Shown here: positions 28,268-43,843 of the stretch, piece after piece
How the letters are laid out: each line of letters starts with the position of its first letter
Numbering within the stretch: position 1 is the first letter of the stretch
From: Candidatus Latescibacterota bacterium
GTDB taxonomy: Bacteria; Latescibacterota; UBA2968; GCA-2709665
NCBI GenBank assembly: GCA_963667175.2
Contig: CAXXXF010000016.1
Span: 64,001-128,000, forward strand
Direction of reading: 5' to 3'
DNA length: 64,000 bases
Made by a program: the position numbers and the translations under genes
Notes under the pieces: model-generated
The model's database searches: none
Told to the model about the DNA's origin: nothing
What the model saw: only the letters and a program-made list of their open reading frames with translations

Positions 28268-29173
28268 ATGATGGGGCTGGAAATGCGTATATTGGCAACG
28301 GGATTGACAAAAGTCTATCCGAAGGGGACCGTGCCCGCGCTGGACAACGTCGACCTGGAGATCGGACGGGGAACGTTCGGGCTGCTTGGCCCGAACGGCG
28401 CCGGAAAGACCACGCTGATCAAGGTTCTTTCAACGCAGATGGCGCCAACGGCCGGGCACGTCAGAATCGGCGCCTGGGATTTGCAGCGCAACCGCTCCGA
28501 AGTGCGGCGGCGGCTGGGCTACCTTCCCCAGCACTTCGGCGCATATCCGCAACTGACGGCGTGGGAGTTTCTGGACTATATGGACCGGCTGGCGGCCGGA
28601 CGCCGTCGGATCGGGCGGAGGGCGCGAGTGCGCGATGCGCTCGAAAACGTGGGGCTCTACGACGCGCGGGACCGGCGGACCGGCGCCTTTTCCGGCGGAA
28701 TGATGCGGCGACTCGGGATTGCTCAGGCCATTGTCGGCGATCCGGAAATCCTGATTGTGGACGAGCCCACCGTGGGGCTCGATCCGGAAGAACGCATCCG
28801 TTTTCGAGGGATTCTCGCTCGGCTGAGTCGGGACAGGACAATCCTGATTTCCACCCATATCGTAGGCGATATTTCGAGCACCTGCGATGACCTGGCGGTG
28901 CTGAATGAAGGGCGGATCGTCTACAGGGGGTCGCCCGATGCCCTGGTCGCTCGCGCGAATGACAAGACCTGGCGGGTACAGGCCGACGACGCGGAGTTCG
29001 AGACGATATCCCGGCGGTTTCTGGTCGTGACGGTCGCCGTGGATGGCGGACGAATGGACCTCCGGTTCGTGGGCGACGGCCGGCCGCCGGCCCACGCCGA
29101 ACCGGTACCGCCAAACCTCGAAGACGCATACGTGTATTATATGGGCCGGGAGAATCAGGAAAGGGCCGCGTAG
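28268..29173 (+). CDS. ABC transporter ATP-binding protein (ABC-2/DrrA-like)
   Basis: Walker A GPNGAGKT, LPQHFG, FSGGM, LIVDEPTVGLDP, ISTH, C-terminal PNLEDAY; start may be 28283. Confidence 0.95.
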   Translation: MMGLEMRILATGLTKVYPKGTVPALDNVDLEIGRGTFGLLGPNGAGKTTLIKVLSTQMAPTAGHVRIGAWDLQRNRSEVRRRLGYLPQHFGAYPQLTAWEFLDYMDRLAAGRRRIGRRARVRDALENVGLYDARDRRTGAFSGGMMRRLGIAQAIVGDPEILIVDEPTVGLDPEERIRFRGILARLSRDRTILISTHIVGDISSTCDDLAVLNEGRIVYRGSPDALVARANDKTWRVQADDAEFETISRRFLVVTVAVDGGRMDLRFVGDGRPPAHAEPVPPNLEDAYVYYMGRENQERAA

Positions 29174-29176
29174 GGC

Positions 29177-32100
29177 ATGGAAACGGTTTTCACAATATTG
29201 TCTGTCGCCGGATACGAGCGCAAGATGCTGATGCGGACGATTCGATTCCGGATCCTGGGCGGTATCGGCGTGCTCATCCCCGTTGGTCTGGGCGTCGGCC
29301 TGGCGGTCGCCGAATCCAGAGGCATCGCATTTGAGTCCGTCAGCGGCATCGGCGCCTATATGCCCTTTTTCGTATACAGTCTGCTGCAGACAGTCGTGAT
29401 CGCGTTTATCGTCGGTGATTTCCGCGCCTCGGATGAGCGCGCCGGAATCTACGAGGTGGTTGCAGCCCGGCCGCTGTCTACGGCCGAACTGGTCATGGGC
29501 AAATACCTGGGGGTCCTGGGTGCGCTGATTACGCTGAGCCTGGTCGTACTGGTGCTCAGCCTGGCGGTCCAGGCGGCCAAGATCAGCGTTACCGGCGCGC
29601 CGTTTGCGATTCGACCCTATCTGACGTACCTGCTGCTGCTGAACCTCCCCGGGCTGGTCTATATGTCCGCTCTGACGTTTTTTCTCGGGGCGATATTTCG
29701 CCGTCAGGCCGCGGTGACCGTGCTGACCATCGCATACGTCCTGATCGTTCTGCTGTTTCTTGGAAGGCGATATGGCGGTATCTACGACTTCGGCGCATTC
29801 TTCGCCCCGGTGTTCTACTCGGATATGCTCGGCCTTGGCGATATCCGGCGGGTGGTCGAGATCCGGGTCTTCTACACGTTTCTTGCCCTGTTTTTCTTCG
29901 GTTTGTCTATCGACCGGTATCCCAGGCTGCCTCAGTCCCGTGCCTGGCGCAGGTTCGGTCGATGTCTGACCGCCGGCGGTTTCGTCGCCGCGACGTGCCT
30001 GTACGCGTATATGGAAAGGCGCGACTCGTCAGACCTCGCCTACCGGATGGCACAGCTGGAAGTTCAGGAAGGAATCGCCGGGCGGCCAACGCCGGCTGTT
30101 ACGCATTACGCGCTCGACCTGGACCTTGCGAATGACCGTACGCCACTGCGGGGCAGGGCGGTTCTCAGCGTTTCGAACCCTCATCCCGTAACGCTCGACA
30201 CCCTCGTTTTCAGTCTCAACCCCGGACTGGAATTGCGGTCGGTGACTGCAGTTGAGGAAAAGGGCGCTGATCTCAGCTGGCAGCGCGAGTATTCTGTCGT
30301 GAGAATCGCCCGTCCGCTTCTGCCCGACAGTCTGGCGACGTTTGAGTTCGTATACGACGGCTCGATCGACCTCAGCGGATTCGATCTGAGGCGCCAACCG
30401 GAAGCAAGACGATTGCAGAAGCGGCGAACGGGGCCGGGAAGGAAGGGGGACCTGACCGCCTGGATCCGCCGGAATTCCGTATTCCTGCCGCCACGCAGCA
30501 GGTGGTACCCCTCGCCGGGCGTGGACTACGGTCATCAGGATGGCCGGCCCCTGTCCTTCGCCACCGCAGTTCTGGATATTGCGCTTCCCGAGGGTCTGGA
30601 AGTCGTGACCCAGGGTGTGCCGATGGGTCGGAAGAAAGAGGGCGGCCGCGAGATTCATTCATGGAAAGTGGAACGCCCCGTACCCGTCCTTTCGCTCAAC
30701 GCGGGCGTGTACCACGTCTTTCAGGCTGAAATCCACAATATCCAATGCGCCATATACGTACATCCGGCCCACGCCAGGCAGGTGACCTTCTTCCACGACG
30801 CCCGGGACGACGCATTGAAAACGCTGGGCGAGATCCTGGATAGCGTTGAACAGGAAACCAGCCTGGCCTATCCGTACCGACGCCTGTCGGTTGTGGAGGT
30901 TCCATTCCAGGTACAGTGGTATTACGACGGATGGGAAGAAGCTGGCGGATTGGCGCAGCCCGGCGTGCTGATGCTTGAAGAGGACGTCCTGATGCGGCTG
31001 AATCTGCAACGTCGTCTGAAGTGGATGCAGCGGCGACAGCGGCGTAACGACGACCCTGCCAGAATCAAGCGGGACCTGCTGGTCAGCACGGTGCTGAACA
31101 CGTTTCTCGCGCGGGAATCGACTCAGAGCGGCATCTACAGGAGTCCGGTTGCGCAACTCTGGTCGTTCAACCGGGGATTCGAAGGCGAACACTATTCCCT
31201 GCTCAAACGCGGCATGCCAGTCTATATGCAGCAGAATCTCGGGACCACGCTGCAACAGAGTTTCTACTCGAGGCGGGGACGGTTTCGAGGCCGGTTCCGG
31301 CGGAACAGGGGCGCGCGCGGCGTTTCCTGGGATACCGTAACGGCCAGGATGCGGCAGCGTTCTTTCGCGGAACTTGACCCGACTGCGGACGCGGAACTCT
31401 ACCGGGCGGTCGTCGACGCCAAGGGCGCCTCCATGTTCGGGATGATGCAGGCCGTGGTGGGAGAAGATGCATTCAGAGACGTGGTCAGCGGATTCGAGGA
31501 GGCGAGCCGGCACGCGGGAGTCGACTTTGCGTCTTTCGAGCGCGCGGCTGTTGGCGATTCGTCGATGCAGGCGGAACGGCCCAGCCTGAATCGACTCGTC
31601 CGGGACTGGCTTCACGGCGCCCAGGTCCCGGGCTACACCCTGACAAGGGCAAAAGCATATAAGGTGGACGACGGATGGGGCATGATGACGTATCAGGTCG
31701 TCGTGCGTATCCGGAACGGCGAGCCGGGGCGCGGATTTGTCCAGATTCGAGCCATGGGGACCGAAGACGAGGCGATAAAGGGCGTTGAGATCGAGGGCGG
31801 ACAGGAAGTTGAGGTGGGGCTGATCCTTTGGGAACGGCCTTCGAGGATAAGCGTCGAGCCGTTCTTTGCTCGCAACCGCCGGGTCCTGATGGCGCCGTTG
31901 CGCATACCCGAGCAGCCGATGGAAGGATCCGCCACGACCTACGTGAGGGAGGTCGCTCCGGACGAGACCGGATTGACCGAGATTATCGTGGACAACGATG
32001 ACGAAGGCTTCGAAATGCCTGTCCGCAGGGTGCGGCGTTATCTCCGTCCGCAGTTGAAAGGCGACAACTGGCAGGAACGCCAGATGCCGTTCTCTTTCGG

Positions 32101-32560
32101 CAGGTATGAAAACAATTACAGGTGGAAGAAACCGGGCGATGGCGCGCAACCGGCCGTCTGGACGGCCCGATTGCCGCACAGCGGGGATTACGACGTCTAC
32201 TATTATTTCCTTCATCCCAGGTTCTCCAGGCGCATGCGTATGGCGTCGGAATTCAGTCTGGCCGTCTGTTACGGCGCCGAGGTGGATACGCTGGCGGTCG
32301 AATCGAACAACCTGAAGGCCGGCTGGAACGTCCTGGGACGATACCGGTTCGAGGGCGGAGAACTGGCCCGGGTCGAGTTGTCCGACCGCGCCAACGGCCG
32401 CCTCTACGCCGACGCGGTGCGCTGGCGATACGTGGATCCCGACCATCCGGAAGAAGTGTACGAAGAGGATCTGCCAACCTGGAATTTCGGTCGCGGCGGC
32501 CGGGGCGGTCGAGGAGGCGGCAGCCGGGGCGGCGGATCGTGGCGTGGGAGAAGCTGGTAA
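29177..32560 (+). CDS. ABC-2-type permease fused to an M1-aminopeptidase-like extracytoplasmic region (no HExxH) and a golvesin/xanthan-lyase-C-terminal-like domain
   Basis: About six N-terminal TM helices (ARPLSTAELVMGKYLG); M1-like THYALDLDL, FSLNPGL, WYP, YPYRRLSVVEVP, AKGASMFGMM; C-terminal IIVDNDD...GWNVLGRYRF...YADAVRW; RGG-rich tail. Confidence 0.75.
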   Translation: METVFTILSVAGYERKMLMRTIRFRILGGIGVLIPVGLGVGLAVAESRGIAFESVSGIGAYMPFFVYSLLQTVVIAFIVGDFRASDERAGIYEVVAARPLSTAELVMGKYLGVLGALITLSLVVLVLSLAVQAAKISVTGAPFAIRPYLTYLLLLNLPGLVYMSALTFFLGAIFRRQAAVTVLTIAYVLIVLLFLGRRYGGIYDFGAFFAPVFYSDMLGLGDIRRVVEIRVFYTFLALFFFGLSIDRYPRLPQSRAWRRFGRCLTAGGFVAATCLYAYMERRDSSDLAYRMAQLEVQEGIAGRPTPAVTHYALDLDLANDRTPLRGRAVLSVSNPHPVTLDTLVFSLNPGLELRSVTAVEEKGADLSWQREYSVVRIARPLLPDSLATFEFVYDGSIDLSGFDLRRQPEARRLQKRRTGPGRKGDLTAWIRRNSVFLPPRSRWYPSPGVDYGHQDGRPLSFATAVLDIALPEGLEVVTQGVPMGRKKEGGREIHSWKVERPVPVLSLNAGVYHVFQAEIHNIQCAIYVHPAHARQVTFFHDARDDALKTLGEILDSVEQETSLAYPYRRLSVVEVPFQVQWYYDGWEEAGGLAQPGVLMLEEDVLMRLNLQRRLKWMQRRQRRNDDPARIKRDLLVSTVLNTFLARESTQSGIYRSPVAQLWSFNRGFEGEHYSLLKRGMPVYMQQNLGTTLQQSFYSRRGRFRGRFRRNRGARGVSWDTVTARMRQRSFAELDPTADAELYRAVVDAKGASMFGMMQAVVGEDAFRDVVSGFEEASRHAGVDFASFERAAVGDSSMQAERPSLNRLVRDWLHGAQVPGYTLTRAKAYKVDDGWGMMTYQVVVRIRNGEPGRGFVQIRAMGTEDEAIKGVEIEGGQEVEVGLILWERPSRISVEPFFARNRRVLMAPLRIPEQPMEGSATTYVREVAPDETGLTEIIVDNDDEGFEMPVRRVRRYLRPQLKGDNWQERQMPFSFGRYENNYRWKKPGDGAQPAVWTARLPHSGDYDVYYYFLHPRFSRRMRMASEFSLAVCYGAEVDTLAVESNNLKAGWNVLGRYRFEGGELARVELSDRANGRLYADAVRWRYVDPDHPEEVYEEDLPTWNFGRGGRGGRGGGSRGGGSWRGRSW

Positions 32561-32594
32561 ACCGTTGGACAATAACCCTTTTGCGAGGTGCAAT

Positions 32595-33677
32595 TTGAAC
32601 AGGCGAATCCTGAGCGACTCCTGCATTGCATTCACGGCTGTTGTCGTTGCAGCCGGCTGCGGCGGGCAAACCGAGCAGCGGTCCGTGGACCTGACCGTCC
32701 CGGTCACCGTCCAGGCCGTTCGCCTGGACACCATGGAGGCGACGGTGGCGGCCACCGGTACGCTCCGGCCCTCCCGGGAGGCCCGCATACAGACCGAGGT
32801 CGACGGTATTCTTCAATATGTCGCGCGGGGCGTCGGAGGACGTCCGAACGATGGAATGCGGGTCACCCGGAACCAGGAGATTGCACGGCTGGTGAACAAG
32901 GAGCTTGTCGTAAACGCACGCCTGGATTCCAGGCAACTCGCGCGCGCCACCGCGAAACGAACGCTGCGCGAGCATGAGGTGCTCGTTGAACGAAAGCTGG
33001 GTACGGAGAGAGACCTGGACGAAGCGCGCCGCGCCCTCGCCGAGGCCGAATCCAATTACGAAGACGCGCTCGTTCAGATCGCCAAGACGACGATCCGGAC
33101 GCCAATCAGCGGTTTTCTGACGGGATTGGCCGACATTACCGAGGGTACGCTGGTGGAGGCCCGAACGACCATCGCTACCGTGATGGATTACAGGCAGGTG
33201 CTCGTCGATCTGAAGATTCCAAACGCCTATATCGCAGCCGTTTCACCCGGCCAGGTCGTGCGAGTGGAAAACTATGCATTGCCCGGAAGGCGGTTTCTGG
33301 GAACGATCCAGGTCGTGGACCCGGCCATCGATCCGACCACGCGCACCTTCCGGGTCGTTGGGACCGTGAAGAATCCGAACCGGACGTTGCGTCCGGGCAT
33401 GTTTGTGAAAGCCGAGATCGTCACGGAGTCTCACGAAGACGCGGTGGTGATTCCTCGCCGCTTTGTCCTGACCCGCCAGAATCGCAAAGTGGTGTTCGTG
33501 GAAGAGGAGGGTAGGGCACAGATGCGCGACGTGGAACTGGGTTTGGAGGGCCCCGAGCAGGTCGAGATTCTGGAAGGGCTTGAAGCGGGCGAGCGCCTCA
33601 TTACCAGCAATTACGAGACGCTGCGACCCCGTACCCGCGTGCGTGTAACCGGCGTGGGCGTGGCGGGGCAGCAGTGA
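32595..33677 (+). CDS. RND efflux periplasmic adaptor (membrane fusion lipoprotein)
   Basis: Probable TTG start after GAGGTG, lipobox VAAGC, IRTPISG, IDPTTRT, LRPGMF, GLEAGERLIT. Confidence 0.92.
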   Translation: MNRRILSDSCIAFTAVVVAAGCGGQTEQRSVDLTVPVTVQAVRLDTMEATVAATGTLRPSREARIQTEVDGILQYVARGVGGRPNDGMRVTRNQEIARLVNKELVVNARLDSRQLARATAKRTLREHEVLVERKLGTERDLDEARRALAEAESNYEDALVQIAKTTIRTPISGFLTGLADITEGTLVEARTTIATVMDYRQVLVDLKIPNAYIAAVSPGQVVRVENYALPGRRFLGTIQVVDPAIDPTTRTFRVVGTVKNPNRTLRPGMFVKAEIVTESHEDAVVIPRRFVLTRQNRKVVFVEEEGRAQMRDVELGLEGPEQVEILEGLEAGERLITSNYETLRPRTRVRVTGVGVAGQQ

Positions 33678-33835: not shown

Positions 33836-33908
33836 ATCTTGATCCGTCATTTTTCGGGGACGTCAATTCGAGTATTTGCGAGCGGATCTCATTCAAAGGG
33901 CCGATACA

Positions 33909-36900
33909 ATGGCATTGCCCGAATATTCGACGAAATATCCGGTAACGGTTGCCATGGCAACGCTTGCCGTCGCGCTCCTGGGCTGGATTTCGCTGGAGCG
34001 CCTGGAGGTGGACCTGCTGCCCGACCTGCGTTCTCCCGTGATTACCGTGGACCTGCGATTTCCGGGCAAAACCCCCAGGGAGATGGAGGAACGATATGCG
34101 CGTCGCCTGGAAGGGGATATCGGCACGGTACGCCACGTCAAACGCGTTCATTCCGTGTCCCGTTCCGGGCAGGCCGTGGTCATCGCGGAATTTGAATGGG
34201 ATGCGGACATGGATTTCGCCCTGCTCGACGTGCAGAAGAAAGTGGCGCGGTACGCTTCGGATCCCGAGATCACGAGTCTGGACGTGACACAGGAAGACCC
34301 CCAGGCGTTGCCGGTGATGCGTCTGGCCGTCTCCGGAGCGGACTGGCAGGACCCGGACGAATTGCTGGGCAGCGCAGAAACCGTCATCCGGCCCAAGCTC
34401 GAGGGGTTGTCCGGGGTGGCTTCGGTGGAAATCGAGGGGGGCGCCGAAAAAGAAATCCGGATCACGCTGGATTCCTATCTCCTTCAAGCATTCGGCGTCA
34501 ATTCGGAGACGGTCGTCTCGCGGATACGCGAGGCCAATTCGGATGTCTCCGGGGGAACGTTGAAAGACGGACAACGTACCTATCTGGTAAAAGGCCTGGG
34601 ACGTCTGACCGACTTGACAGACGTGAACAACCTGGTTGTGGGCGAACGCAGGGGCGAATCTTCGAATGGCGAGGAAGACGCCTCGACCCAGCGCGTTCCC
34701 GTCACGGTGAGCGACGTTGGAACCGTGGGTCTGCTGTATAAGGAAAGGGAAACCATCGTTCGCCTCGACGGCAGGGAGTGCGTCGGGCTTTCCGTTTACA
34801 AGGAAGCCGGCGCGAATACCTCGTCGGTGGTCAACGGGGTTCTCCGGGAACTGGGAAGCCTGGAGGCCGATCTGAACGGCATCCGGTTTACGGTGGTGGA
34901 AAACCAGGCCCGCTTCGTCGAACGCGCGGTAAATGAAGTGGAAGAGGCGGCCGTTCTTGGCGCGTTGCTCGCAGTGGGCGTGCTGCTGGCTGCGCTCCGG
35001 CAGTGGACCGCCACGCTGGTGATCGGACTTGCCATTCCGATTTCCGTTCTGGCCACGTTCACGCTGATGTATTTCCAGGGGCTGACGCTGAACGTCATGA
35101 CCCTCGGCGGCCTGGCGCTGGGCGCCGGCATGCTGGTGGACAACGCCATTGTCGTGATCGAGAACATATACCGGCGCCTCGAGAGAGGAGAAACGGCCGC
35201 AGAGGCCTCCGTCAGAGGCGCCAGTGAGGTCGGGGTCGCGATTCTGGCGTCCACGCTGACCACGGTGTCCGTGTTTCTGCCCATTGTCTACCTTCACGGG
35301 TTGGCCGGTGAACTCTTCAAGGAACAGGCCTGGACGGTCGCGTTCTCACTGGTTTCGTCTCTCGCGGTGGCGATGACCGTGGTGCCCATGTTGACCGCCC
35401 GGCTATTCAGGCGGTATCCTCGACGGTCTGCAGGGATCGCGGGAACGCGGTCCTTCAGACGCTTTCTGGACCGGTCGCTGAACCATAAGGGGCGGACGAT
35501 GGCGGTGCTCGCGGCCTGCCTTGTGGCTGCCTTCTATATGGCCCGGTCCATCCATACGTCTTTTATTCCCACGGAAGACGAGGGTGTGCTCCACGTGGAC
35601 CTCGCGCTGCCGGAGGGCACGAGACTGGAGTCGACAGACAGGGTGGCGAGGCGGGTTGCCGCCATTACGCAGGCGGTTTCCGGAGAGGAAGCGCGGCACA
35701 TCTACCTGCGCGTGGGAACCGATCCGAACCGGTTTGGCGCCGTGGGAGAACCCACGGGCCCGAACAGGGCCGAGATGACGGTCGTGCTGGGCCGACAGGC
35801 GAACCGTCGCGGCGTCTCCGAACTCACCACGGTTCTGGATGCAGCCCTCCTGGAAGTTCCGGACATTAAGGTAAATTATCGACTTCAAAAGGCTGCATTG
35901 GAGGGTCTTATACGAGGCGCAACTGCGCCGGTCCAGGTCGAGGTCAGCGGCGAGAACCTGGAACTGCTTCGGGAACTGACCGCAGATCTGAAACGGCGCA
36001 TGGACGCGTTGTCCACGGTATATAACGTGCGAACCAGCTTTCAGGACGGTCAGCCCGAGGTGGACGTGGTGCTGCGGCCGGACGTCACAGCGGCGTTCGG
36101 ACTGACCTCGCAGAACCTCGTGCGAGAGCTCGAACGCAGGCTGGGCGGAGAGGAAGCCGGAGAACTCTCCAAGGACCAGCGGGCCCGAACGATCCGGGTG
36201 GGTTTCGAGGACGTGGACCTTCGGGAGCTGCAGCACGCGAGAATCGACGGTCCCGACGGGGCAATGCTTACGCTGGGAGATCTCGCCGACCTGCGGGTCG
36301 TTCAGGGCCCCAGGGAAATCCTGCGGGACGGGCAGCGCAGGGTCGGGCGGGTATCCGCTTTCCTGACCGACGGTGTGGTCTTGAGCCAGGCGGCAACACA
36401 GATCAGGCAGGCGGTGCGACAGATGGCCATACCGCACGGATACCAGGTGACCATAACCGGTGAGGAACGGGAGCGGGCCGAATCATTCGGCGGCCTGCAG
36501 TTCGCCCTTCTGCTTTCGGTGGTGCTCGTCTATATGGTCATGGCTTCGCTCTTCGAGTCTCTGCTCCATCCGTTTACCGTCATGCTGACGGTGCCGCTGG
36601 CAGGCATCGGCGTGGTGGTCGCATTCTGGAGTCTGGGAGAAGCGTTTGGCGTGATGGCGTTCATCGGCGCGATCATGCTGGGAGGAATCGCCGTTAACGA
36701 CGCCATCATACTGGTGGACCACATCAATCAGTTGCGGCGCGAGTTGGGCGACGTGAGACAGGCCGTACTTCAGGCCGCGCAGGATCGGATGCGCCCGATC
36801 CTGATGACCAGCGCCACGACGATTCTGGCGTTGTTGCCCATGGCCGTGGGCGTCGGCGAAGGCGCCCGACTGCGTGCCCCGATGGCGGTGGCCGTTATCG

Positions 36901-36992
36901 GCGGTCTGGTCACGTCCACGTTGATGACCCTTGTGGTGATTCCCGTCGTCTACGAACTGATCGAAGGGCTCAGAAGGAGGAGGGCGGCGTGA
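33909..36992 (+). CDS. AcrB/AcrD/AcrF-family RND permease
   Basis: LLPDLRSPVITV, GMLVDNAIVVIENI, STLTTVSVFLP, GIAVNDAIILVD, RMRPILMT, MAVAVIGGL; about 1027 aa. Confidence 0.95.
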   Translation: MALPEYSTKYPVTVAMATLAVALLGWISLERLEVDLLPDLRSPVITVDLRFPGKTPREMEERYARRLEGDIGTVRHVKRVHSVSRSGQAVVIAEFEWDADMDFALLDVQKKVARYASDPEITSLDVTQEDPQALPVMRLAVSGADWQDPDELLGSAETVIRPKLEGLSGVASVEIEGGAEKEIRITLDSYLLQAFGVNSETVVSRIREANSDVSGGTLKDGQRTYLVKGLGRLTDLTDVNNLVVGERRGESSNGEEDASTQRVPVTVSDVGTVGLLYKERETIVRLDGRECVGLSVYKEAGANTSSVVNGVLRELGSLEADLNGIRFTVVENQARFVERAVNEVEEAAVLGALLAVGVLLAALRQWTATLVIGLAIPISVLATFTLMYFQGLTLNVMTLGGLALGAGMLVDNAIVVIENIYRRLERGETAAEASVRGASEVGVAILASTLTTVSVFLPIVYLHGLAGELFKEQAWTVAFSLVSSLAVAMTVVPMLTARLFRRYPRRSAGIAGTRSFRRFLDRSLNHKGRTMAVLAACLVAAFYMARSIHTSFIPTEDEGVLHVDLALPEGTRLESTDRVARRVAAITQAVSGEEARHIYLRVGTDPNRFGAVGEPTGPNRAEMTVVLGRQANRRGVSELTTVLDAALLEVPDIKVNYRLQKAALEGLIRGATAPVQVEVSGENLELLRELTADLKRRMDALSTVYNVRTSFQDGQPEVDVVLRPDVTAAFGLTSQNLVRELERRLGGEEAGELSKDQRARTIRVGFEDVDLRELQHARIDGPDGAMLTLGDLADLRVVQGPREILRDGQRRVGRVSAFLTDGVVLSQAATQIRQAVRQMAIPHGYQVTITGEERERAESFGGLQFALLLSVVLVYMVMASLFESLLHPFTVMLTVPLAGIGVVVAFWSLGEAFGVMAFIGAIMLGGIAVNDAIILVDHINQLRRELGDVRQAVLQAAQDRMRPILMTSATTILALLPMAVGVGEGARLRAPMAVAVIGGLVTSTLMTLVVIPVVYELIEGLRRRRAA

Positions 36993-39900
36993 TTCTCCCC
37001 GATCTTGCGGTCCGGCGACCCGTAACGACGTCGATGTTCTTCGCCGCATTCGCCATATTGGGAGTCGTGTCGTGGACGAGGCTTCCGGTACAGCTCTTTC
37101 CGGAGCTGATCTTTCCGGAGGTGTTTGTCACGCTGTCGCTGCAGGGGGCCTCTCCGGAACAGGTGGAACGAGACCTGCTGGTTCCCGCGGAAGGGGAGAT
37201 CGGCAAGCTGGACGGCGTCCAGGAGATGGAGTCGTTCGCGATGGCCAACAGGGGAGGTATTCGCGTATCCTACGCGCCCGACGTGGATATGAAGTTCGCC
37301 CTGCTTCAACTTCAGAGCAACCTGAACAGATTGCAGCCGACGCTGCCCGAGCGTACTCAGTCCGACGTCAGGAGGTTCGATTCGACGGATCTCAGCAGCA
37401 GCATTATGGAGCTTCACGTGCTCGCCGACTGGGACCTGAACCCGTTGCGGGAGTTCACGGAGGAAAAAATCCGGCCCGAGCTGGAGTCTGTCGACGGTGT
37501 CGTCAACGTGACCGTATTGGGCGGACGTCGCAGCGCCGTGGAAATCGTCCTTGATCCGTTCCTGCTGGAGGCGCATGGTCTTTCGACGGGACAGGTTCGG
37601 GCACGCCTGAACAGCTATAACCGGCGGCGTGAGTACCTGGGGCGCGTATACGAAGGGAATCGGGCCTATTCGGTGAGCATTCAGGGTCAGTTTACGGACC
37701 TGCGTCAGATTCGCGATCTCGTCCTGAACGCGGACGGCACGCTCAGGCTGGGCGACGTTTCCCGGGTGGAATTCGGACTCCAGGAACAGGCCGATCGGCA
37801 CAGAGTCAATGGAAGACCGTCGGTGGGCGTCCGGATCCAGAAGGACGACGAAGCCAATCTGATCGAGGTTGCCGCCTCGGTCGAAGGCGCCATCGGCCGT
37901 CTGAATCGGGACTTCGAGAGCGAGGGCGTGGAACTGGGCGTGAGTTCCTCACAGGCGGATCTGATGACCGGAGCGCTTTCCACCCTGAAGCAGGCGGCCA
38001 TTGCCGGCGCCGTGCTCGGACTGATCGTGCTCTTTCTGTTTCTTCGGAACCTTCGTTTCGTCTCGGTCCTCCTGCTGGCCATTCCGATTTCTCTCCTGAT
38101 GACCTTTAATCTGATGTACCTCGGCGGGCTGTCCGTCAACGTGCTGTCTCTGTGCGGTCTCGCCCTGGCGATGGGGATGCTTGCTGACAACGGCATCGTG
38201 GTGATGGAAAACATCTTCAAGCACTACGAACGGGGTAAATCGCCCGCCGACGCGGCAAGGGACGGTGCGGCCGAGGTCGGGCGCGCCGTGGTTGCGGCAA
38301 CCGCAACCACCGTAACCGCATTCCTGCCGATTCTGTTCATCGAGAGCGACGCGCGGGACCTGCTGCGGGAACTCGCGTTGTCCATGGCCTTTCCGCTCCT
38401 TGCGTCACTGCTGGTGGCCCTGACGCTTGTTCCGGCCCTCGCCGTCCGAGCGTTGAGCCGAGGGGTCCGACAGCCTCCGGACGTTCGCGGGTTGCTCGAA
38501 CGGTATACGCTGCTGCTGAAGACCGCTCTGCGTCACCGCGCATCGGTGGTCCTGTCCGCGGGGGTGGCGCTCGCGCTGACACTCGTGGTGGCGTTCTTCT
38601 ACCTGCTGCAACAGCAGGTGCGCAGGGAGGAGACACGTTTTACGGTTTACGTGAACCTTCCGGAAGGGGCCACGCTGGATGCGACGGACGAGGTCGTGAA
38701 ACAGGTGGAAGCGTCCGTACGGGACGTGCCGGGTCTGGACCGGTTTACGACGTCGGTCCGCGAGGCGGAAGCCGACGTGAATGTATTGCTTGACGGACGT
38801 TCTGACCGGCCCGGCGGCATCTCGCTGGATGAAATCAAAGAGCAACTCGACGACAGACTGCAGAATGTGCAGGGAGGTGTCGTCGGATACGAACCCAGGC
38901 CCCGTGCGGGGAGGGGAGGCCGCGGGCAGGGGATAGGACAACGTCGGAGACGCGGTTCAGGTGGATTCGATCTGACCGGGGCCACGCCGAATGAGCAGGT
39001 TGTGGTTCGAGGGTACGACTTTACGATCCTGACGATGATTGCCAATGACCTGACGTACCGCCTCGAAGAACTGGAGGAGGTGGATGCCAACAGCGTACGC
39101 GCCGACGCCGAACGGAGTTCGCCCGAGGTGCAGGTGATACCCGATGCGGCCGCCCTGTTCGACCGGCGGCTTGGCGCGCAGGAAGTGCTCGCCGCCATGG
39201 GTGACACCCGTTGGGACGGGTTTCGCACAACGGTCCCGTTCCTGCTGCCCGATGCAACCGAGGTGCCCATCGAAGTGCGTACGATCGAAGAGGAGGACCG
39301 CGACCGCTACGGACTGGCGGAATTCAGGCGTTCACGCATACTGAACCGGGACGGGCATTACGTGCCTCTGTCCGAAGTGGCGAGGGTCCGGACGGATGAG
39401 GGACGGAGCAGCCTGTTGCGGACCGACCAGACCCGTCGGATTGTGGTTTCCTACCGGTTTCCTTCGGAGATTCTGGATTCTCAGCCGCGGTTGGATCTCG
39501 CGAGACGGGTCGTGCGAACGACGCTGCAGGACATGGTTCTGCCGGAGGGGTATTCGATCGAAATCATCGAGGCTCACGAGGAGATGATCTACTATTGGAT
39601 GATGGCGGTCGCCGCGGTACTCATCTATATGATCCTGGCGTCGCTGTTTGAGTCTTTCGCCTCTCCGATCATCATTCTGTGTACGCTGCCGCCCGCGGCC
39701 ATCGGCTCCTGCTGGGCGCTGATGATGTCGGGCACGGGCCTCAGCCAGCAGGAGGGTCCCATGGCGCTTCTGGGCTTCATCGTCCTGCTGGGCATTGCGG
39801 TGAACAACGGAATCATCCTGATCGACGCGGTCGGCGTGCTCAGGACTCGATTCGGCTTTCGCCGGGAACGCGCGGTGCTGACCGCGGCGCGGTCGCGTGT

Positions 39901-41701
39901 TCGACCCATTCTGATGACAACGGCCACGACGCTTCTGGGCGTTCTTCCACTGGCGCTCGAATACGGCGGCGATTTTGAAATCTGGCCGCCGTTCGCAATT
40001 ACCGTTCTGGGTGGGCTGTCGGTTTCCATGGTCTCCACGTTGATCCTGATTCCAGTGGTCTACATGGGACTGGATCAGATCGGCGCCTGGCTTGCCGACA
40101 TGGGGGCTATCGCCGTCACGCTGTCGCTGCTGGCGACCGCCGCGGCCGGGTATGGCGTTTATGTGCGGTATGAAAGCGTTTTCTGGGCAACGCTGTCGAT
40201 ATTACCCATCTGGGGCGCGTCACTGACAGCGATATGGATCGTCCTGAAAGTACACCGCGCCCGAGTCGCCGCCCGGCGGGTATCCGGCGCCGTTCATTCC
40301 ATCCAGCTGAGAAATCTTACCAAGATCTACGGTGCGCCCGGGCGGTTTATACGGGAGTGGGCGCGCAACGAGCGCCGGCGAGGGCGGATGATGGAAACCG
40401 GGCCGGGTCCACACGACCGCAAGGCGGTCCGTGAAGCGCTCATCTGGAAGCTGCCGTTGCTCGCGCTGTTGTCGGTCTTCACGACCTATTTCGTGGACGA
40501 AATCTGGATCTATCTGCACGGGCTTGCGCTGGCATCCATGCTTGCGCACGTGGGGAGATGCATTGGAGACCTGAGGGAAAAGCAATTTCCGGCGCCGATC
40601 GCCCGCATTGGCGCCCTGCTGCTCAAAGCCGTGCTGCCATTGACGTTTGTAGGCTATGCGCACTGGCGGCTGAACCTGCTTTCAGTCACGCTTGCCACGT
40701 TCGGGCTGTGGGTCGCCTATCGACTGGTGCGGCGGCTCGCCGACAGGGTACGTTCCGGGGAGATCGATCCCGATGCCGTGTCCGGACGTTTGGCGCGGCC
40801 GCGCCGGTGGAGCTATCGAATGGCCTCGGCCATGCCGCTCGTCGGCGTTCCCCGGCCGGAGTTTCGGGCGCTGGCGGGCGTCAACCTGGAAATCGGCAGG
40901 GGGATGTTCGGACTTCTGGGCCCCAACGGGGCCGGCAAGACCACGTTGATGCGCATTCTCTGCCGGGTACTCGAACCCAGCTACGGCTCCATTCTGATCG
41001 ACGGTCGAAACGTCCTGAACAGGGGATCGATTCACGGTCTGATTGGCTACCTGCCGCAGCACTTCGGCAACTACGGACACCTTTCCGCAACCGAGTATCT
41101 GGAATACCGGGCGCTTCTGGAGGGTTTCAAAGACCGGACAATTCGGGACACCCGGGTGATCGAATCCCTGGAACAGGTCAATTTGATCGAACGCAAAGAC
41201 GATCCGGTCGGCTCGTTTTCAGGCGGTATGAAGCAGCGCCTGGGCATCGCTCAGACCCTTCTGCACACCCCGCTGATCGTGGTGGTGGACGAGCCCACGG
41301 CGGGGCTCGATCCGCTGGAGCGCATCCGGTTCCGCAACCTGCTTGCCAGGTTGAGCCAGGATCGCATTGTCATTTTCTCCACGCACATCGTGGAAGATAT
41401 CTCCGGAAGCTGCAATCGTCTGGCAGTACTGGACCATGGGTGTCTTCTGTATACGGGAACGCCGGAGGAAATGCGGAATCTGGCGACGGGACGGGTGTGG
41501 GACACGGTGGTTTCGGAGCGGCGCTTTTCGGAGATGGAGGACAAACTGAAGCTCATTTCGCATCAACGAACGCCCGGCGGGATCCGGATGCGGTTCCTGT
41601 CAGAACAGGCGCCGGTCGATATCGGCGCGCAGAGTGTGGATCCAACCCTGGAAGACGCGTACCTGTACCTGCTTGGCGGAGGGGAGGGACAGCCGTGCTG
41701 A
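36989..41701 (+). CDS. AcrB-family RND permease fused to extra TM helices and a C-terminal ABC ATPase
   Basis: One uninterrupted 1570-aa ORF: complete RND ([29 protein letters not shown]), extra hydrophobic helices, then [42 protein letters not shown]. Confidence 0.9.
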   Translation: [1570 protein letters not shown]

Positions 41702-42417
41702 ACTGGCGGGAATTGCTGCTCACCACGTGGCGGCTTTATCGGCTGAGCTGCAGGATCATATTCCACAGGAAGTTGATGTTCATGGGCATCGGCCTTCTCG
41801 TCTATTACGCCGCCATGTACGCGTTCGCGGTGTGGCGCCCCGACGAGGGGTTCGGCGTGTCGCAGGCGCTCAACGTTCTGGTTGAAATCCCCGGTATTGC
41901 GCTTGCCATTTATCTGACGATGGACCTCGTTGCGGGCGAACGAGACCGGAATACACTTGAAACCCTGTTCAGCACAACCTCTACCCACTACAAGATCTGG
42001 ACGATCCGGATGGTGGGGGTGTATCTGGTTCTGGCGGGAACCCTCATGGGAATGACGGTGGTCGCCTATTTCGTCTTCGCCGAACTTCCGATTTTCCGGG
42101 GCGGATTGAACGCCTTTCTGCCGGCATGTCTTGCCGCCGGGCTCACGTTTACCTTCTCCGTTCTCTGTCGAAGCGGCAACGCGGCCGCGATGCTGGCGAC
42201 CGGGGTGATGGTCCTGGCTCTGGTCGTTTCGAAGTCCATGCCCGATTCTCCCTTCGTGCTCTTTCTGGACACGTTTGATCCGCCGGTGGGCATGGAAGAC
42301 ACGCTTTGGGGCGACCGGGTTCTGCTGAACCGTCTGGCCGTCGTGCTGCTGTCGGGCTTGCTGCTGTTTATCGGCCTGCGCAGAATGGAAGCGCGGGAGC
42401 GGCTGGTATCTTCGTAA
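41695..42417 (+). CDS. ABC-2-type transporter permease
   Basis: GTG 41695 overlaps the previous stop, SD GGAGGG; 240 aa, about six TM helices, AGERDRNTLETLFS motif. It is the 3' part of track ORF 40558-42417. Confidence 0.82.
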   Translation: MLNWRELLLTTWRLYRLSCRIIFHRKLMFMGIGLLVYYAAMYAFAVWRPDEGFGVSQALNVLVEIPGIALAIYLTMDLVAGERDRNTLETLFSTTSTHYKIWTIRMVGVYLVLAGTLMGMTVVAYFVFAELPIFRGGLNAFLPACLAAGLTFTFSVLCRSGNAAAMLATGVMVLALVVSKSMPDSPFVLFLDTFDPPVGMEDTLWGDRVLLNRLAVVLLSGLLLFIGLRRMEARERLVSS

Positions 42418-42463
42418 CGGCGGGTCTCCTGTGCCACAGACGCGGGACCGACGGGCGCCCATC

Positions 42464-43606
42464 CTATTCCTTTCTTACGTCCAGCCGGACTTTTCGCGGC
42501 GCCACGTTCACGACCGCCAGATCCGTCCCATGCCTGATTGACTCGACGCCGAACTCGAACGTCCTGCGCCCGAACCTGACGTAGCCGGCATCGATGACGA
42601 GCCGAAAGGCGTCCTTGGGCGCGAGCAGAAGGGCGCGTCGGGGACCCTTCACGGTGACGTCTACGGCGGCCGGTCTCACGCCCTCCAGCGCATAGCCGCC
42701 CGGCAGATTCTCCACGCCGACCGCCACTTCATACGTCGCTTCCTGGACCGACGCGCCGGGCACCAGAAATACCCATGCGCCGAACGCCAGCGCGAAGGAG
42801 AGCATCCCCTCCGAGAGATGCCGCGCCAGCCAGCCTCGACCGGCCCTCCGATCGCCGACAACCACGTGTTGAGAGTGCTTCTGCAACCTCGACAGCAGTT
42901 CGTCAGGATCGTCCAGAATCTCAAGTCGACCCTGGCGTGCGACGGCGATGGTGCCGCGCTCCTCGGAAACGACCAGGCAGAGGGCGTCGCTGCGTTCGGT
43001 CAACCCCAGCGCCGCGGCGTGGCGGGTTCCTGCCGGCCCGAGTTCGCTGCGGTTTTCCGACAGCGGCAGATGGACGGCAAAACGCTCCAGCCGGTCGTCC
43101 CTCATCACCAGCGCCCCGTCGTGCCCCGCCGAAGTCGTGCCGAACAGGCTGTCGATGAGCTCCTCGCTGATGGTGGCTTGCAGTACAATCCCACCCTGCA
43201 GGAGCCGGTCGAGCGGTTCCCGTCCGGGAAGGACCACCAGGCCGCCCCGCCGATTTTCCGCCAGCTGAACCATCGCGCGAACCAGTACCGCCAGACTCCC
43301 CCCGCGGGGACGCGATGCCCTTCTGCCCAGGCCCAGCGCTGCAATCTGCTCGAAGAGCCTTCGAAGGTCGTCCTGGAAGACAACGACCAGCAGCACGACG
43401 AGTACGGCAAAGAACCCCTGGAATATCCACGCCGTCAGCTGCAGCTCGAACTGCCGCGCCAGGAGATAGAAAGCGCCCAGAAACGCCAGCCCGACGAGCG
43501 CCATGCGGGCGTGCATCCTCCGGGTCCAGGCCAACAGTCCCCAGAACAGCACGCCCACGACCGCGATGTCCACGACGTCTGAAAATGTAACCTCAAGCAG
43601 CGTCAT
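42464..43606 (-). CDS. cdaA: Diadenylate cyclase (CdaA-type, three N-terminal TM helices) fused to a TM helix and YbbR (CdaR-like) domain
   Basis: DVVDIAVV, VVFQDDLRRLFEQ, HDGAL, GTRHAAALGLTERSDA, VSEERG; C-terminal VDVTVKGPR...PRKVRL. Confidence 0.85.
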   Translation of the reverse strand: MTLLEVTFSDVVDIAVVGVLFWGLLAWTRRMHARMALVGLAFLGAFYLLARQFELQLTAWIFQGFFAVLVVLLVVVFQDDLRRLFEQIAALGLGRRASRPRGGSLAVLVRAMVQLAENRRGGLVVLPGREPLDRLLQGGIVLQATISEELIDSLFGTTSAGHDGALVMRDDRLERFAVHLPLSENRSELGPAGTRHAAALGLTERSDALCLVVSEERGTIAVARQGRLEILDDPDELLSRLQKHSQHVVVGDRRAGRGWLARHLSEGMLSFALAFGAWVFLVPGASVQEATYEVAVGVENLPGGYALEGVRPAAVDVTVKGPRRALLLAPKDAFRLVIDAGYVRFGRRTFEFGVESIRHGTDLAVVNVAPRKVRLDVRKE

Positions 43607-43843
43607 ATTGAAGGTTTTCCGCCTGCTGAATTCGGTCGATTGAGGGCGATGGGGACACCTGACGGCGTGTGAAACCCCGCCAGCCCGAAATATGGGCAAT
43701 CTTTCTCATTTCGTCAAGACCGCCCCTGCCGGTTTGCTTCGCGGCAGATCGACGTCTGCCGGATTCCGAGGCGGCAGGACCGCGGTCCGGTCCGGGCGGC
43801 GCCATGTTCGCCCGTTGAATCGATCCGTGGTTCTCGTCTTTCG

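Follow-up and report, generated by a model that had tools for sequence, protein, structure and literature searches.

Introduction

Resistance-nodulation-division (RND) and ATP-binding cassette (ABC) pumps are the two main efflux engines of Gram-negative bacteria, and textbooks assign a different energy source to each. In this study, a 64,000-nucleotide stretch of DNA from a Candidatus Latescibacterota bacterium (GenBank assembly GCA_963667175.2, contig CAXXXF010000016.1, positions 64,001 to 128,000; hereafter the window) was analyzed. It carries a gene for a 1570-residue protein in which an RND permease is fused to an ABC ATPase, and the nucleotide-binding domain (NBD) of this ATPase is interrupted by a segment predicted to cross the membrane. 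The design is apparently undescribed and is built from two known kinds of pump.

Three described systems are closest to the fusion. MacB-type pumps (MacAB-TolC) have an NBD joined to a four-helix membrane domain and an HlyD-type adaptor, as stated in passages of the review PMC8277102, and PMC5985334 describes a presumed mechanical transfer of energy to the periplasm (mechanotransmission). The fusion resembles MacB in that its NBD is covalently tied to membrane helices and accompanied by an HlyD-type adaptor, and the MacB NBD (5lj9) matched its predicted structure with a Z score of 26.8. However, the helices of MacB follow the whole NBD, with a large periplasmic domain between transmembrane helices TM1 and TM2, whereas those of the fusion interrupt the NBD and are connected by turns of 2–6 residues. 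The MacB membrane domain was absent among the structural matches listed for the membrane part, and the fusion was not assigned to the MacB type.

The NBD1 of CFTR carries a regulatory insertion of about 30 residues between strands 1 and 2 (residues 404–435), and channels split there still work, according to passages of PMC2217481. The fusion has its insertion at the same place, between NBD strands 1 and 2, where CFTR tolerates even a chain break. The CFTR segment is soluble, mobile and phosphorylated, whereas the segment in the fusion is about 176 residues long and has four predicted membrane helices. Unlike CFTR, the fusion also combines a bacterial ABC-2/DrrA-like NBD with an RND permease. 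RND heterotrimers are documented for MdtBC (passages of PMC8277102), and the window likewise has two adjacent, divergent RND genes behind one adaptor gene. In contrast, MdtB and MdtC have no ATPase and no extra helices, and MdtB has DD in TM4 and Lys in TM10 where the fusion has DN and N. No description of an RND-ABC fusion or of a membrane insert in an NBD was found in the literature covered, from which subscription journals are mostly absent. Neither of the two is mentioned in the passages found of the review PMC8277102.

Domain layout of the fusion protein

The features of the fusion gene were as follows (positions in the window, strand, and residues of the 1570-residue protein).

36989–41701 (+): complete gene of the RND-ABC fusion (1570 aa, start codon GTG); a single frame with Pfam ACR_tran and ABC_tran
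37001–40069 (+): RND (AcrB/ACR_tran) permease domain, aa 5–1027, 12 TM helices; from Pfam, hydropathy peaks and MdtB as best PDB sequence match
40106–40279 (+): two extra predicted TM helices after RND TM12, aa 1040–1061 and 1064–1097; from model helices, Kyte-Doolittle peaks of 1.72 and 1.80, and family hydropathy
40298–40330 (+): displaced NBD strand β1 with the A-loop Tyr, aa 1104–1114 (K1112, Y1114); from a position-specific scoring matrix, the model and conservation
40343–40396 (+): predicted basic cytoplasmic helix directly after β1, with the PGRFxREW motif; from model helix 82–99, conservation and the Lys/Arg count
40418–40753 (+): predicted four-helix membrane insert, aa 1144–1164, 1171–1196, 1202–1228 and 1231–1255; from the model, hydropathy, and W1153 and W1173
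40793–40831 (+): predicted cytoplasmic helix returning into the NBD, aa 1269–1281; from model helix 232–244 and a Lys/Arg-rich loop
40862–41698 (+): rest of the ABC ATPase, strand β2 to the C-terminal domain, aa 1292–1570; from Pfam, motifs, fold match and profile alignment

The Pfam family ACR_tran matched aa 5–1027 with 602 bits, over profile positions 3–1019 of 1021. ABC_tran (PF00005) matched aa 1297–1438 with 92 bits against a cut-off of 25. Between them, aa 1028–1296 were without any Pfam family match. The region 40298–40945 runs from S1104 through the end of Walker A. The strand sequence with the LTKIY motif begins at aa 1105 (nt 40301). The FRAL-containing resumption begins at aa 1292 (nt 40862), and Walker A follows at aa 1311 (nt 40919). 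Translation of 36989–41701 placed exactly 176 residues between YG at the strand end and FRAL, in agreement with an initial annotation made from the sequence alone, which had described an NBD split by an insert of about 176 residues. That annotation had missed the two TM helices ahead of β1 (aa ~1040–1061 and 1064–1097). In the predicted structure, these extra helices return the chain to the cytoplasm after RND TM12.

The results suggested that the fusion is probably an intact ABC NBD on the C-terminus of an RND permease, with the loop of the β1-β2 hairpin replaced by a membrane module. Directly after the A-loop Tyr, the replacement likely runs from a basic helix in the cytoplasm through four membrane spans to a helix that leads back into the NBD. 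With the two helices ahead of β1, the NBD would, with good probability, gain a six-helix membrane domain of its own. This domain is expected to be tied to the N-terminal β-sheet of the NBD by three chain connections and not by coupling helices alone. Such confidence covers the structural statement; the exact mechanism is put at somewhat below even.

Displacement of the first NBD strand

The ATPase part contains GPNGAGKTT at 1311, the Q-loop residue Q1357, FSGGM at 1410, VVVDEP at 1431, D1434-E1435 (Walker B and Glu), GLD (D-loop) and H1466 (H-loop). The columns of the catalytic NBD motifs, among them those of the catalytic Glu and of the H-loop His, were invariant in 60 of 60 aligned rows, which argues for turnover and not mere ATP binding.

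The operon also encodes a stand-alone ABC ATPase (28268–29173, +), in which the same β1-β2 elements are contiguous, as the initial annotation had read them. The distance from the Tyr to Walker A is 24 residues in this enzyme and 197 in the fusion. The fused NBD was 45% identical to it over 277 aa, and the alignment began just past β1 of the stand-alone enzyme. A profile of 50 stand-alone ATPases aligned to the fusion from profile position 16 on (aa 1292–1565), and the first 15 profile positions were absent at the contiguous place. A matrix of 12 columns (profile positions 2–13) was built for β1 from the same 50 ATPases and run over the 1570-residue fusion. It scored 24.0 bits at aa 1104–1115, and the runner-up site scored 2.0. 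The maximum in 1000 shuffles was 17.2 bits, and none of them reached 24.0. With a unique site and a score above all shuffles, the upstream strand was not a chance match. The A-loop aromatic residue is present (Y1114), and β1 and β2 are not contiguous. Since the strand lies 197 residues ahead of Walker A instead of 24, the NBD is discontinuous.

The best NCBIfam models for the fused NBD were TIGR01188 with 168.8 bits (cut-off 312.45) and TIGR03522 with 161.3 bits (cut-off 402.6). The domain was thus nearest to the DrrA/GldA/ABCA group, yet under every curated NCBIfam cut-off. Its best PDB sequence matches were ABCA4, ABCA7, ABCA1, ABCA3, TM_1403 and NosF, with alignments that started at about aa 1290. 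The fusion NBD and the DrrA/GldA/ABCA-type (ABC-2) ATPases, which gave these best-scoring models, have a C-terminal domain in common. However, those ATPases have a contiguous β1-β2 hairpin and no RND fusion.

Predicted structure of the C-terminal module

The structure of aa 1038–1570 was predicted by AlphaFold2 with a 60-row family alignment. Model residue i corresponds to protein residue i + 1037. The mean predicted local distance difference test score (pLDDT) was 92.6, and the predicted template modelling score (pTM) was 0.85. The elements of the model were as follows.

Model 3–24: first extra TM helix
Model 27–60: second extra TM helix
Model 67–77: β1 strand
Model 82–99: basic helix after β1
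Model 107–127, 134–159, 165–191 and 194–218: four long insert helices, pLDDT mostly above 90
Model 232–244: return helix
Model from 255: β2

Solved NBDs aligned to the model from model residue 64–67, which corresponded to their own residue 1–2, with Z scores of 26–30. The structure 4yer gave a Z score of 29.9, and 1vpl gave 28.8 with a root-mean-square deviation of 1.5 Å and 234 of 238 residues aligned. Because the alignment of 1vpl was nearly complete, its first strand must lie on model residues 66–77. AlphaFold2 thus puts the displaced strand in the predicted position of a canonical β1, which answered the doubt raised in the initial annotation that the strand might not pack into the NBD. When the membrane part was modelled by itself (pLDDT 91.8), the sole β bridges were at 76–77 and 255–256. 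As only these two were found, they pair with each other and form the predicted base of the interrupted hairpin.

The membrane part was compared with known folds. Foldseek against the PDB gave 0 matches at E ≤ 0.001. The best match in the VIA wide fold search had a Z score of 9.0 over 102 residues, within the stated noise range for helical bundles, and the matches were generic helical bundles. An ABC transmembrane domain (TMD) was absent among the best 50 VIA matches listed for the membrane part. No usable match to aa 1030–1291 was obtained in the ESM Atlas. In hhalign, the accessory helices compared with the TMD of the operon's ABC-2 permease gave probabilities of 1.3% and 0.15%.

Membrane character of the insert

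The Kyte-Doolittle peaks (19-residue window) of the four insert helices were 1.75, 1.28, 1.74 and 1.33, next to the 1.72 and 1.80 of the two helices ahead of β1. Within the same protein, the 12 TM helices of the RND domain gave 1.44–2.44 and the soluble NBD gave 1.01–1.05. Judged against the RND helices, two insert helices were therefore clearly membrane-like and two were marginal. The insert helices were 21–27 residues long in the model. Family-averaged hydropathy kept six hydrophobic blocks, four of them in the insert.

The Lys and Arg counts per sequence, averaged over the family, were 10.0 (model loop 61–106), 0.9 and 7.9 (model loop 219–254) in the predicted cytoplasmic loops, and 0.0, 0.1 and 0.2 in the predicted periplasmic turns. 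The number of spans has to be even, because the RND C-terminus, β1 and β2 must all be cytoplasmic; two plus four spans fit this requirement. By hydropathy and the positive-inside rule, the insert looks membrane-spanning, with four spans and both ends cytoplasmic, and the membrane location assumed in the initial annotation was upheld.

Conservation and distribution

A search with aa 1030–1330 found at least 120 homologues, and all of those listed carry PF00873 and PF00005. A length of 1455–1667 aa was found for 109 of the 120. The best β1 match lay 186–279 residues ahead of Walker A in 120 of 120 listed homologues, with scores of at least 12 bits in 115 and of 10.4–11.6 bits in five. The insert position is thus conserved, as would be expected from the initial annotation, which had also held that an accidental read-through would not give such interleaving. 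The source names of the homologues were Gemmatimonadota, Acidobacteriota, Latescibacterota, KSB1 and Calditrichaeota, to which one Bacteroidales locus (L020) was added. Among Latescibacterota, 83 of 168 genomes matched the 254-residue linker region (E ≤ 1e-5), and many of the 83 are single-contig assemblies. None of the matches listed has an internal stop, and they lie mostly in open frames of about 1570–1700 aa. The source genome has one copy of the linker module.

The insert was 161–241 residues long in the 60-row alignment. K1112 was present in all 59 rows compared, and Y1114 was present in 56 of them. The motif matrix, the conservation and the model agree that the predicted TM bundle was inserted in the loop just after the A-loop aromatic residue, where the initial annotation had placed it. 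The best-kept residues of the insert were R1122 (48/59) and W1124 (51/59) of the PGRFxREW helix, W1153 (48/60) and W1173 (55/60) at helix ends, G1266 and P1283.

Seven short RND-NBD fusions without the membrane insert were examined (P0164, P0167, P0173, P0178, P0190, P0223 and P0228; 1389–1451 aa). In six of them the strand lay 46–72 residues ahead of Walker A, with no hydrophobic peak in between, and the β1-β2 loop was about 22–48 residues larger. In P0223 the β1 pattern located no strand. A loop without a hydrophobic peak is expanded yet not membrane-spanning, and the existence of these proteins means that an NBD can sit on an RND permease without a membrane domain of its own. A PVF...IPS.RYK.G.RP motif was common to the fragment P0183 and three of the seven (P0173, P0190 and P0228).

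When an NBD tree was built by a quick method, 36 long-form rows fell on one side of a branch with an SH-aLRT (Shimodaira-Hasegawa-like approximate likelihood ratio test) value of 92, together with P0274 (counted among the short forms from its length, but named partial by its source) and P0174 (a 301-aa entry). The short fusions formed two groups near stand-alone ATPases. The tree agrees with the four-helix insert having arisen once, without being proof of it. The 539-aa entry P0214 was considered as a free-standing module, which its nearest relatives did not bear out. These (58–59% identical) were found at three loci, and at L031, the one of the three for which open reading frames (ORFs) were listed, the match lay inside a 1599-aa fusion frame.

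RND domains and the proton relay

The full-length PF00873 match and the twelve hydropathy peaks of 1.44–2.44 identify the first part of the fusion as an RND permease. It scored below the cut-offs of all named RND subfamilies compared (RND_permease_2, MdtB/MdtC and AcrB), the best being NF033617 with 518.3 bits against 1250. MdtB was the best PDB sequence match of the pieces of this RND (RND2).

The AcrB-type proton relay consists, in AcrB numbering, of D407 and D408 in TM4 and K940 in TM10. In the fusion, TM4 reads ADN, whereas MdtB and MexB-like chains have DD; TM10 reads VNN, whereas these chains have KKN or AKN. The TM11 Arg is kept. The fusion RND therefore does not have the AcrB-type relay. 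The partner RND encoded directly upstream has DN in TM4 and VND in TM10, and the TM4 Asp and TM11 Arg are kept in both proteins. The extra TM10 Asp of the partner was read in the window and in 7 of 8 other loci, the Bacteroidales locus having VNN. VNN in TM10 of the fusion was read in the window and in all six other loci read. A degenerate relay specific to the fused RND was considered and rejected, because the partner also has DN in TM4 and only the TM10 Asp differs. As DN occurs in both RNDs, the TM4 change is a family trait.

Operon and gene neighbourhood

The fusion gene is the last of a five-gene operon, in the order ABC ATPase, ABC-2 permease, adaptor, RND and RND-ABC fusion. The other four genes were as follows.

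28268–29173 (+): stand-alone ABC ATPase with contiguous β1-β2, first gene of the operon; from sequence, upstream in 7 of 9 loci
29177–32560 (+): ABC-2-type permease, 1127 aa, with 6–7 N-terminal TM helices and a C-terminal domain of ~830 aa; from Pfam
32544–33677 (+): HlyD-type periplasmic adaptor (membrane fusion protein); from Pfam, 9 of 9 loci
33876–36992 (+): partner RND permease that lacks an NBD, with ~31% identity to the fusion's RND domain; from Pfam, immediately before the fusion gene in 9 of 9 loci

The permease and adaptor ORFs overlap by 17 nt (32544–32560), and those of the plain RND and the fusion by 4 nt (GTGA, 36989–36992). These overlaps suggest translational coupling, as read from the gene coordinates. 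Adaptor, plain RND and fusion were found in the identical order in 9 of 9 loci from other genomes, with linker identity down to 23–28%. The ATPase and the ABC-2 permease were upstream of the adaptor in 7 of 9. The remaining two loci end early upstream: the sequence of L027 opens within the permease, and L020 (Bacteroidales) shows neither gene. Across the 168 Latescibacterota genomes, the insert module and the permease occurred together in 78, the insert alone in 5, the permease alone in 3 and neither in 82, so that the permease was found in 81. The five insert-only genomes are 58–88% complete. These counts are a pattern and not a statistic, as related genomes are not independent. In a complex prediction without controls, the C-terminal module (533 aa) and the first 300 aa of the permease (9-row alignment) scored 0.20 against a mark of 0.32, which speaks neither for nor against a contact.

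The C-terminal domain of the permease had only a Golvesin_C match and a weak M1-peptidase-like match. It ends in a Gly/Arg-rich tail with repeated GRGG and SRGGG units (32470–32557). In genus g31, the permease matches of G159, G164, G165, G166 and G167 had one in-frame TGA each, in open frames of 1786–3004 aa, and the match in G158 also had one TGA. The TGA could reflect read-through, a selenocysteine codon or fusion to the adjacent gene.

Downstream, a 299-aa ORF without a Pfam or NCBIfam match (41563–42462, −) is convergent with the fusion gene, the final ~139 nt of which it overlaps. Relatives of this ORF were found at the equivalent position in L021, L022, L026 and L028, with an overlap of ~130 nt in three of them. 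Their C-terminal similarity may be a mirror of the conserved NBD end on the opposite strand. Just downstream, at 42464–43699 (−), is a gene for a CdaA-type diadenylate cyclase with DAC and CdaA_N domains.

Proposed mechanism and alternative explanations

The constant presence of one RND with an NBD and one without suggests a 2:1 heterotrimer like MdtB2C. In the proposed mechanism, two fusion copies and one NBD-less partner RND would form this heterotrimer, which would resolve the mismatch between NBDs that act in pairs and RNDs that act in threes. ATP would close the two NBDs. The closure would move β1 and β2, thence the accessory helices and thence the transmembrane domain of the RND, and ATP would thereby drive or gate RND cycling. 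The ABC-2 permease and the stand-alone ATPase of the operon may serve the same export route. The initial annotation had proposed that ATP binding is coupled to the RND or the permeases; this is plausible, and only from operon conservation and co-occurrence. An ATP-driven or ATP-gated 2:1 heterotrimer in exactly this form is a tentative proposal, to which we give a little less than an even chance. More doubtful is the further statement that this would be the first RND pump using ATP, with an ABC ATPase hard-wired through the four-helix insert in a 2:1 heterotrimer with an NBD-less partner.

Two alternatives concern the structure. An assembly or frameshift error, or a read-through, might have joined an RND, a small membrane protein and an ATPase, with LTKIY a chance match or a dead remnant. 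Some database entries are indeed shorter (501–985 aa), and P0214 starts with a Met just before the two extra helices. However, P0152 (526 aa) falls in one 90% cluster together with a protein of 1567 aa, the relative of P0214 at L031 lies inside a long frame, and the linker module recurs, without a stop in the matches listed, in 83 genomes, of which many are single-contig assemblies. The β1 motif is moreover conserved and far above chance. As far as sequence data can do so, the artefact is already refuted, and it is scarcely credible. It is also very unlikely that the four insert helices form a soluble or peripheral bundle on the NBD while only the two helices ahead of β1 cross the membrane. 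In favour of such a bundle, the two marginal helices contain His, Arg or Asp, and generic helical bundles, soluble ones among them, are the nearest structural matches. The other two helices nevertheless fall within the TM range of the protein's own RND domain, and the lengths of all four, with turns of 2–6 residues, the four hydrophobic blocks kept in the family profile, the near confinement of Lys and Arg to the predicted cytoplasmic side, and the Trp residues at helix ends (W1153 and W1173) speak for spans.

The other two alternatives accept the insert and differ in the use of ATP. In a heterodimeric ABC engine, each RND trimer would contain a single fusion protomer. The NBD of this protomer would pair with the stand-alone ATPase, and the six accessory helices would pair with a single ABC-2 permease, giving an asymmetric exporter tethered to the RND; ABC export into the periplasm would then feed the RND and adaptor. 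The almost perfect co-occurrence of ATPase/permease with the insert module, the single operon in 7 of 9 loci (the other two being short upstream) and the 45% identity of the two NBDs agree with this arrangement. The stand-alone ATPase was also the next best match in its own genome to a query stretch reaching into the start of the fused NBD, and each NBD would get one 6-TM partner. We nevertheless regard it as unlikely, given the 1.3% hhalign probability between the accessory helices and the ABC-2 TMD and the absence of any ABC TMD among the best 50 structural matches listed. As a rule, one ATPase and one ABC-2 permease are already a complete homodimeric transporter, and we know of no TMD pair made of two unrelated folds. 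Permease paralogues also occur without the insert module (G018 has four permease matches and no insert). A purely regulatory role is quite unlikely. Here the RNDs would stay proton-driven, and the NBD with its insert would be an ATP/ADP sensor or assembly clamp that switches the pump on and off or holds the ABC-2 system beside the RND, without powering transport. The TM4 Asp and TM11 Arg kept in both RNDs and the extra TM10 Asp of the partner RND (7 of 8 loci) would suit such a role. Some ABC modules, such as FtsEX (PMC11627006), act in signalling and not in transport, and CFTR insertions at the equivalent site are modulatory and not essential (passages of PMC2217481). On the other side, the hydrolysis motifs are invariant in 60 of 60 rows, pointing to turnover, and neither the four conserved helices nor the conserved PGRFxREW helix would be needed for anchoring alone.

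Several points weigh against the ATP-coupled heterotrimer and the structure on which it is built. All results are computational, from sequence analysis and structure prediction, and no expression, ATPase or transport data were found for any family member. The placement of β1 relies on a single prediction method that knows the NBD fold, and the fold of the membrane part cannot be cross-checked because no solved structural relative was found. The marginal insert helices (1.28 and 1.33) overlap the highest non-membrane peaks of the protein (1.26–1.28). Both RNDs keep the TM4 Asp, so the pump may still be proton-driven. The stoichiometry, the NBD partner and the coupling direction are purely inferred. 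The tree is quick and midpoint-rooted, and its long-form branch lies below the SH-aLRT mark of 95.

Significance

The fusion unites the RND and ABC engines in one polypeptide that is conserved across several phyla, and its ATPase is interrupted by predicted membrane helices at a site where only CFTR is known to carry an insert. The five-gene set defines a widespread putative export system. If ATP acts on the RND, the fusion would be a case of hybrid energization and a new route of coupling between an NBD and the membrane, in which the NBD could pass force through the β1-β2 hairpin instead of coupling helices. An ATP-using RND would blur the line between primary (ABC) and secondary (RND) pumps. 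Even if the module is only an anchor or regulator, it would show cleanly how a membrane domain can be inserted in a soluble fold in nature.

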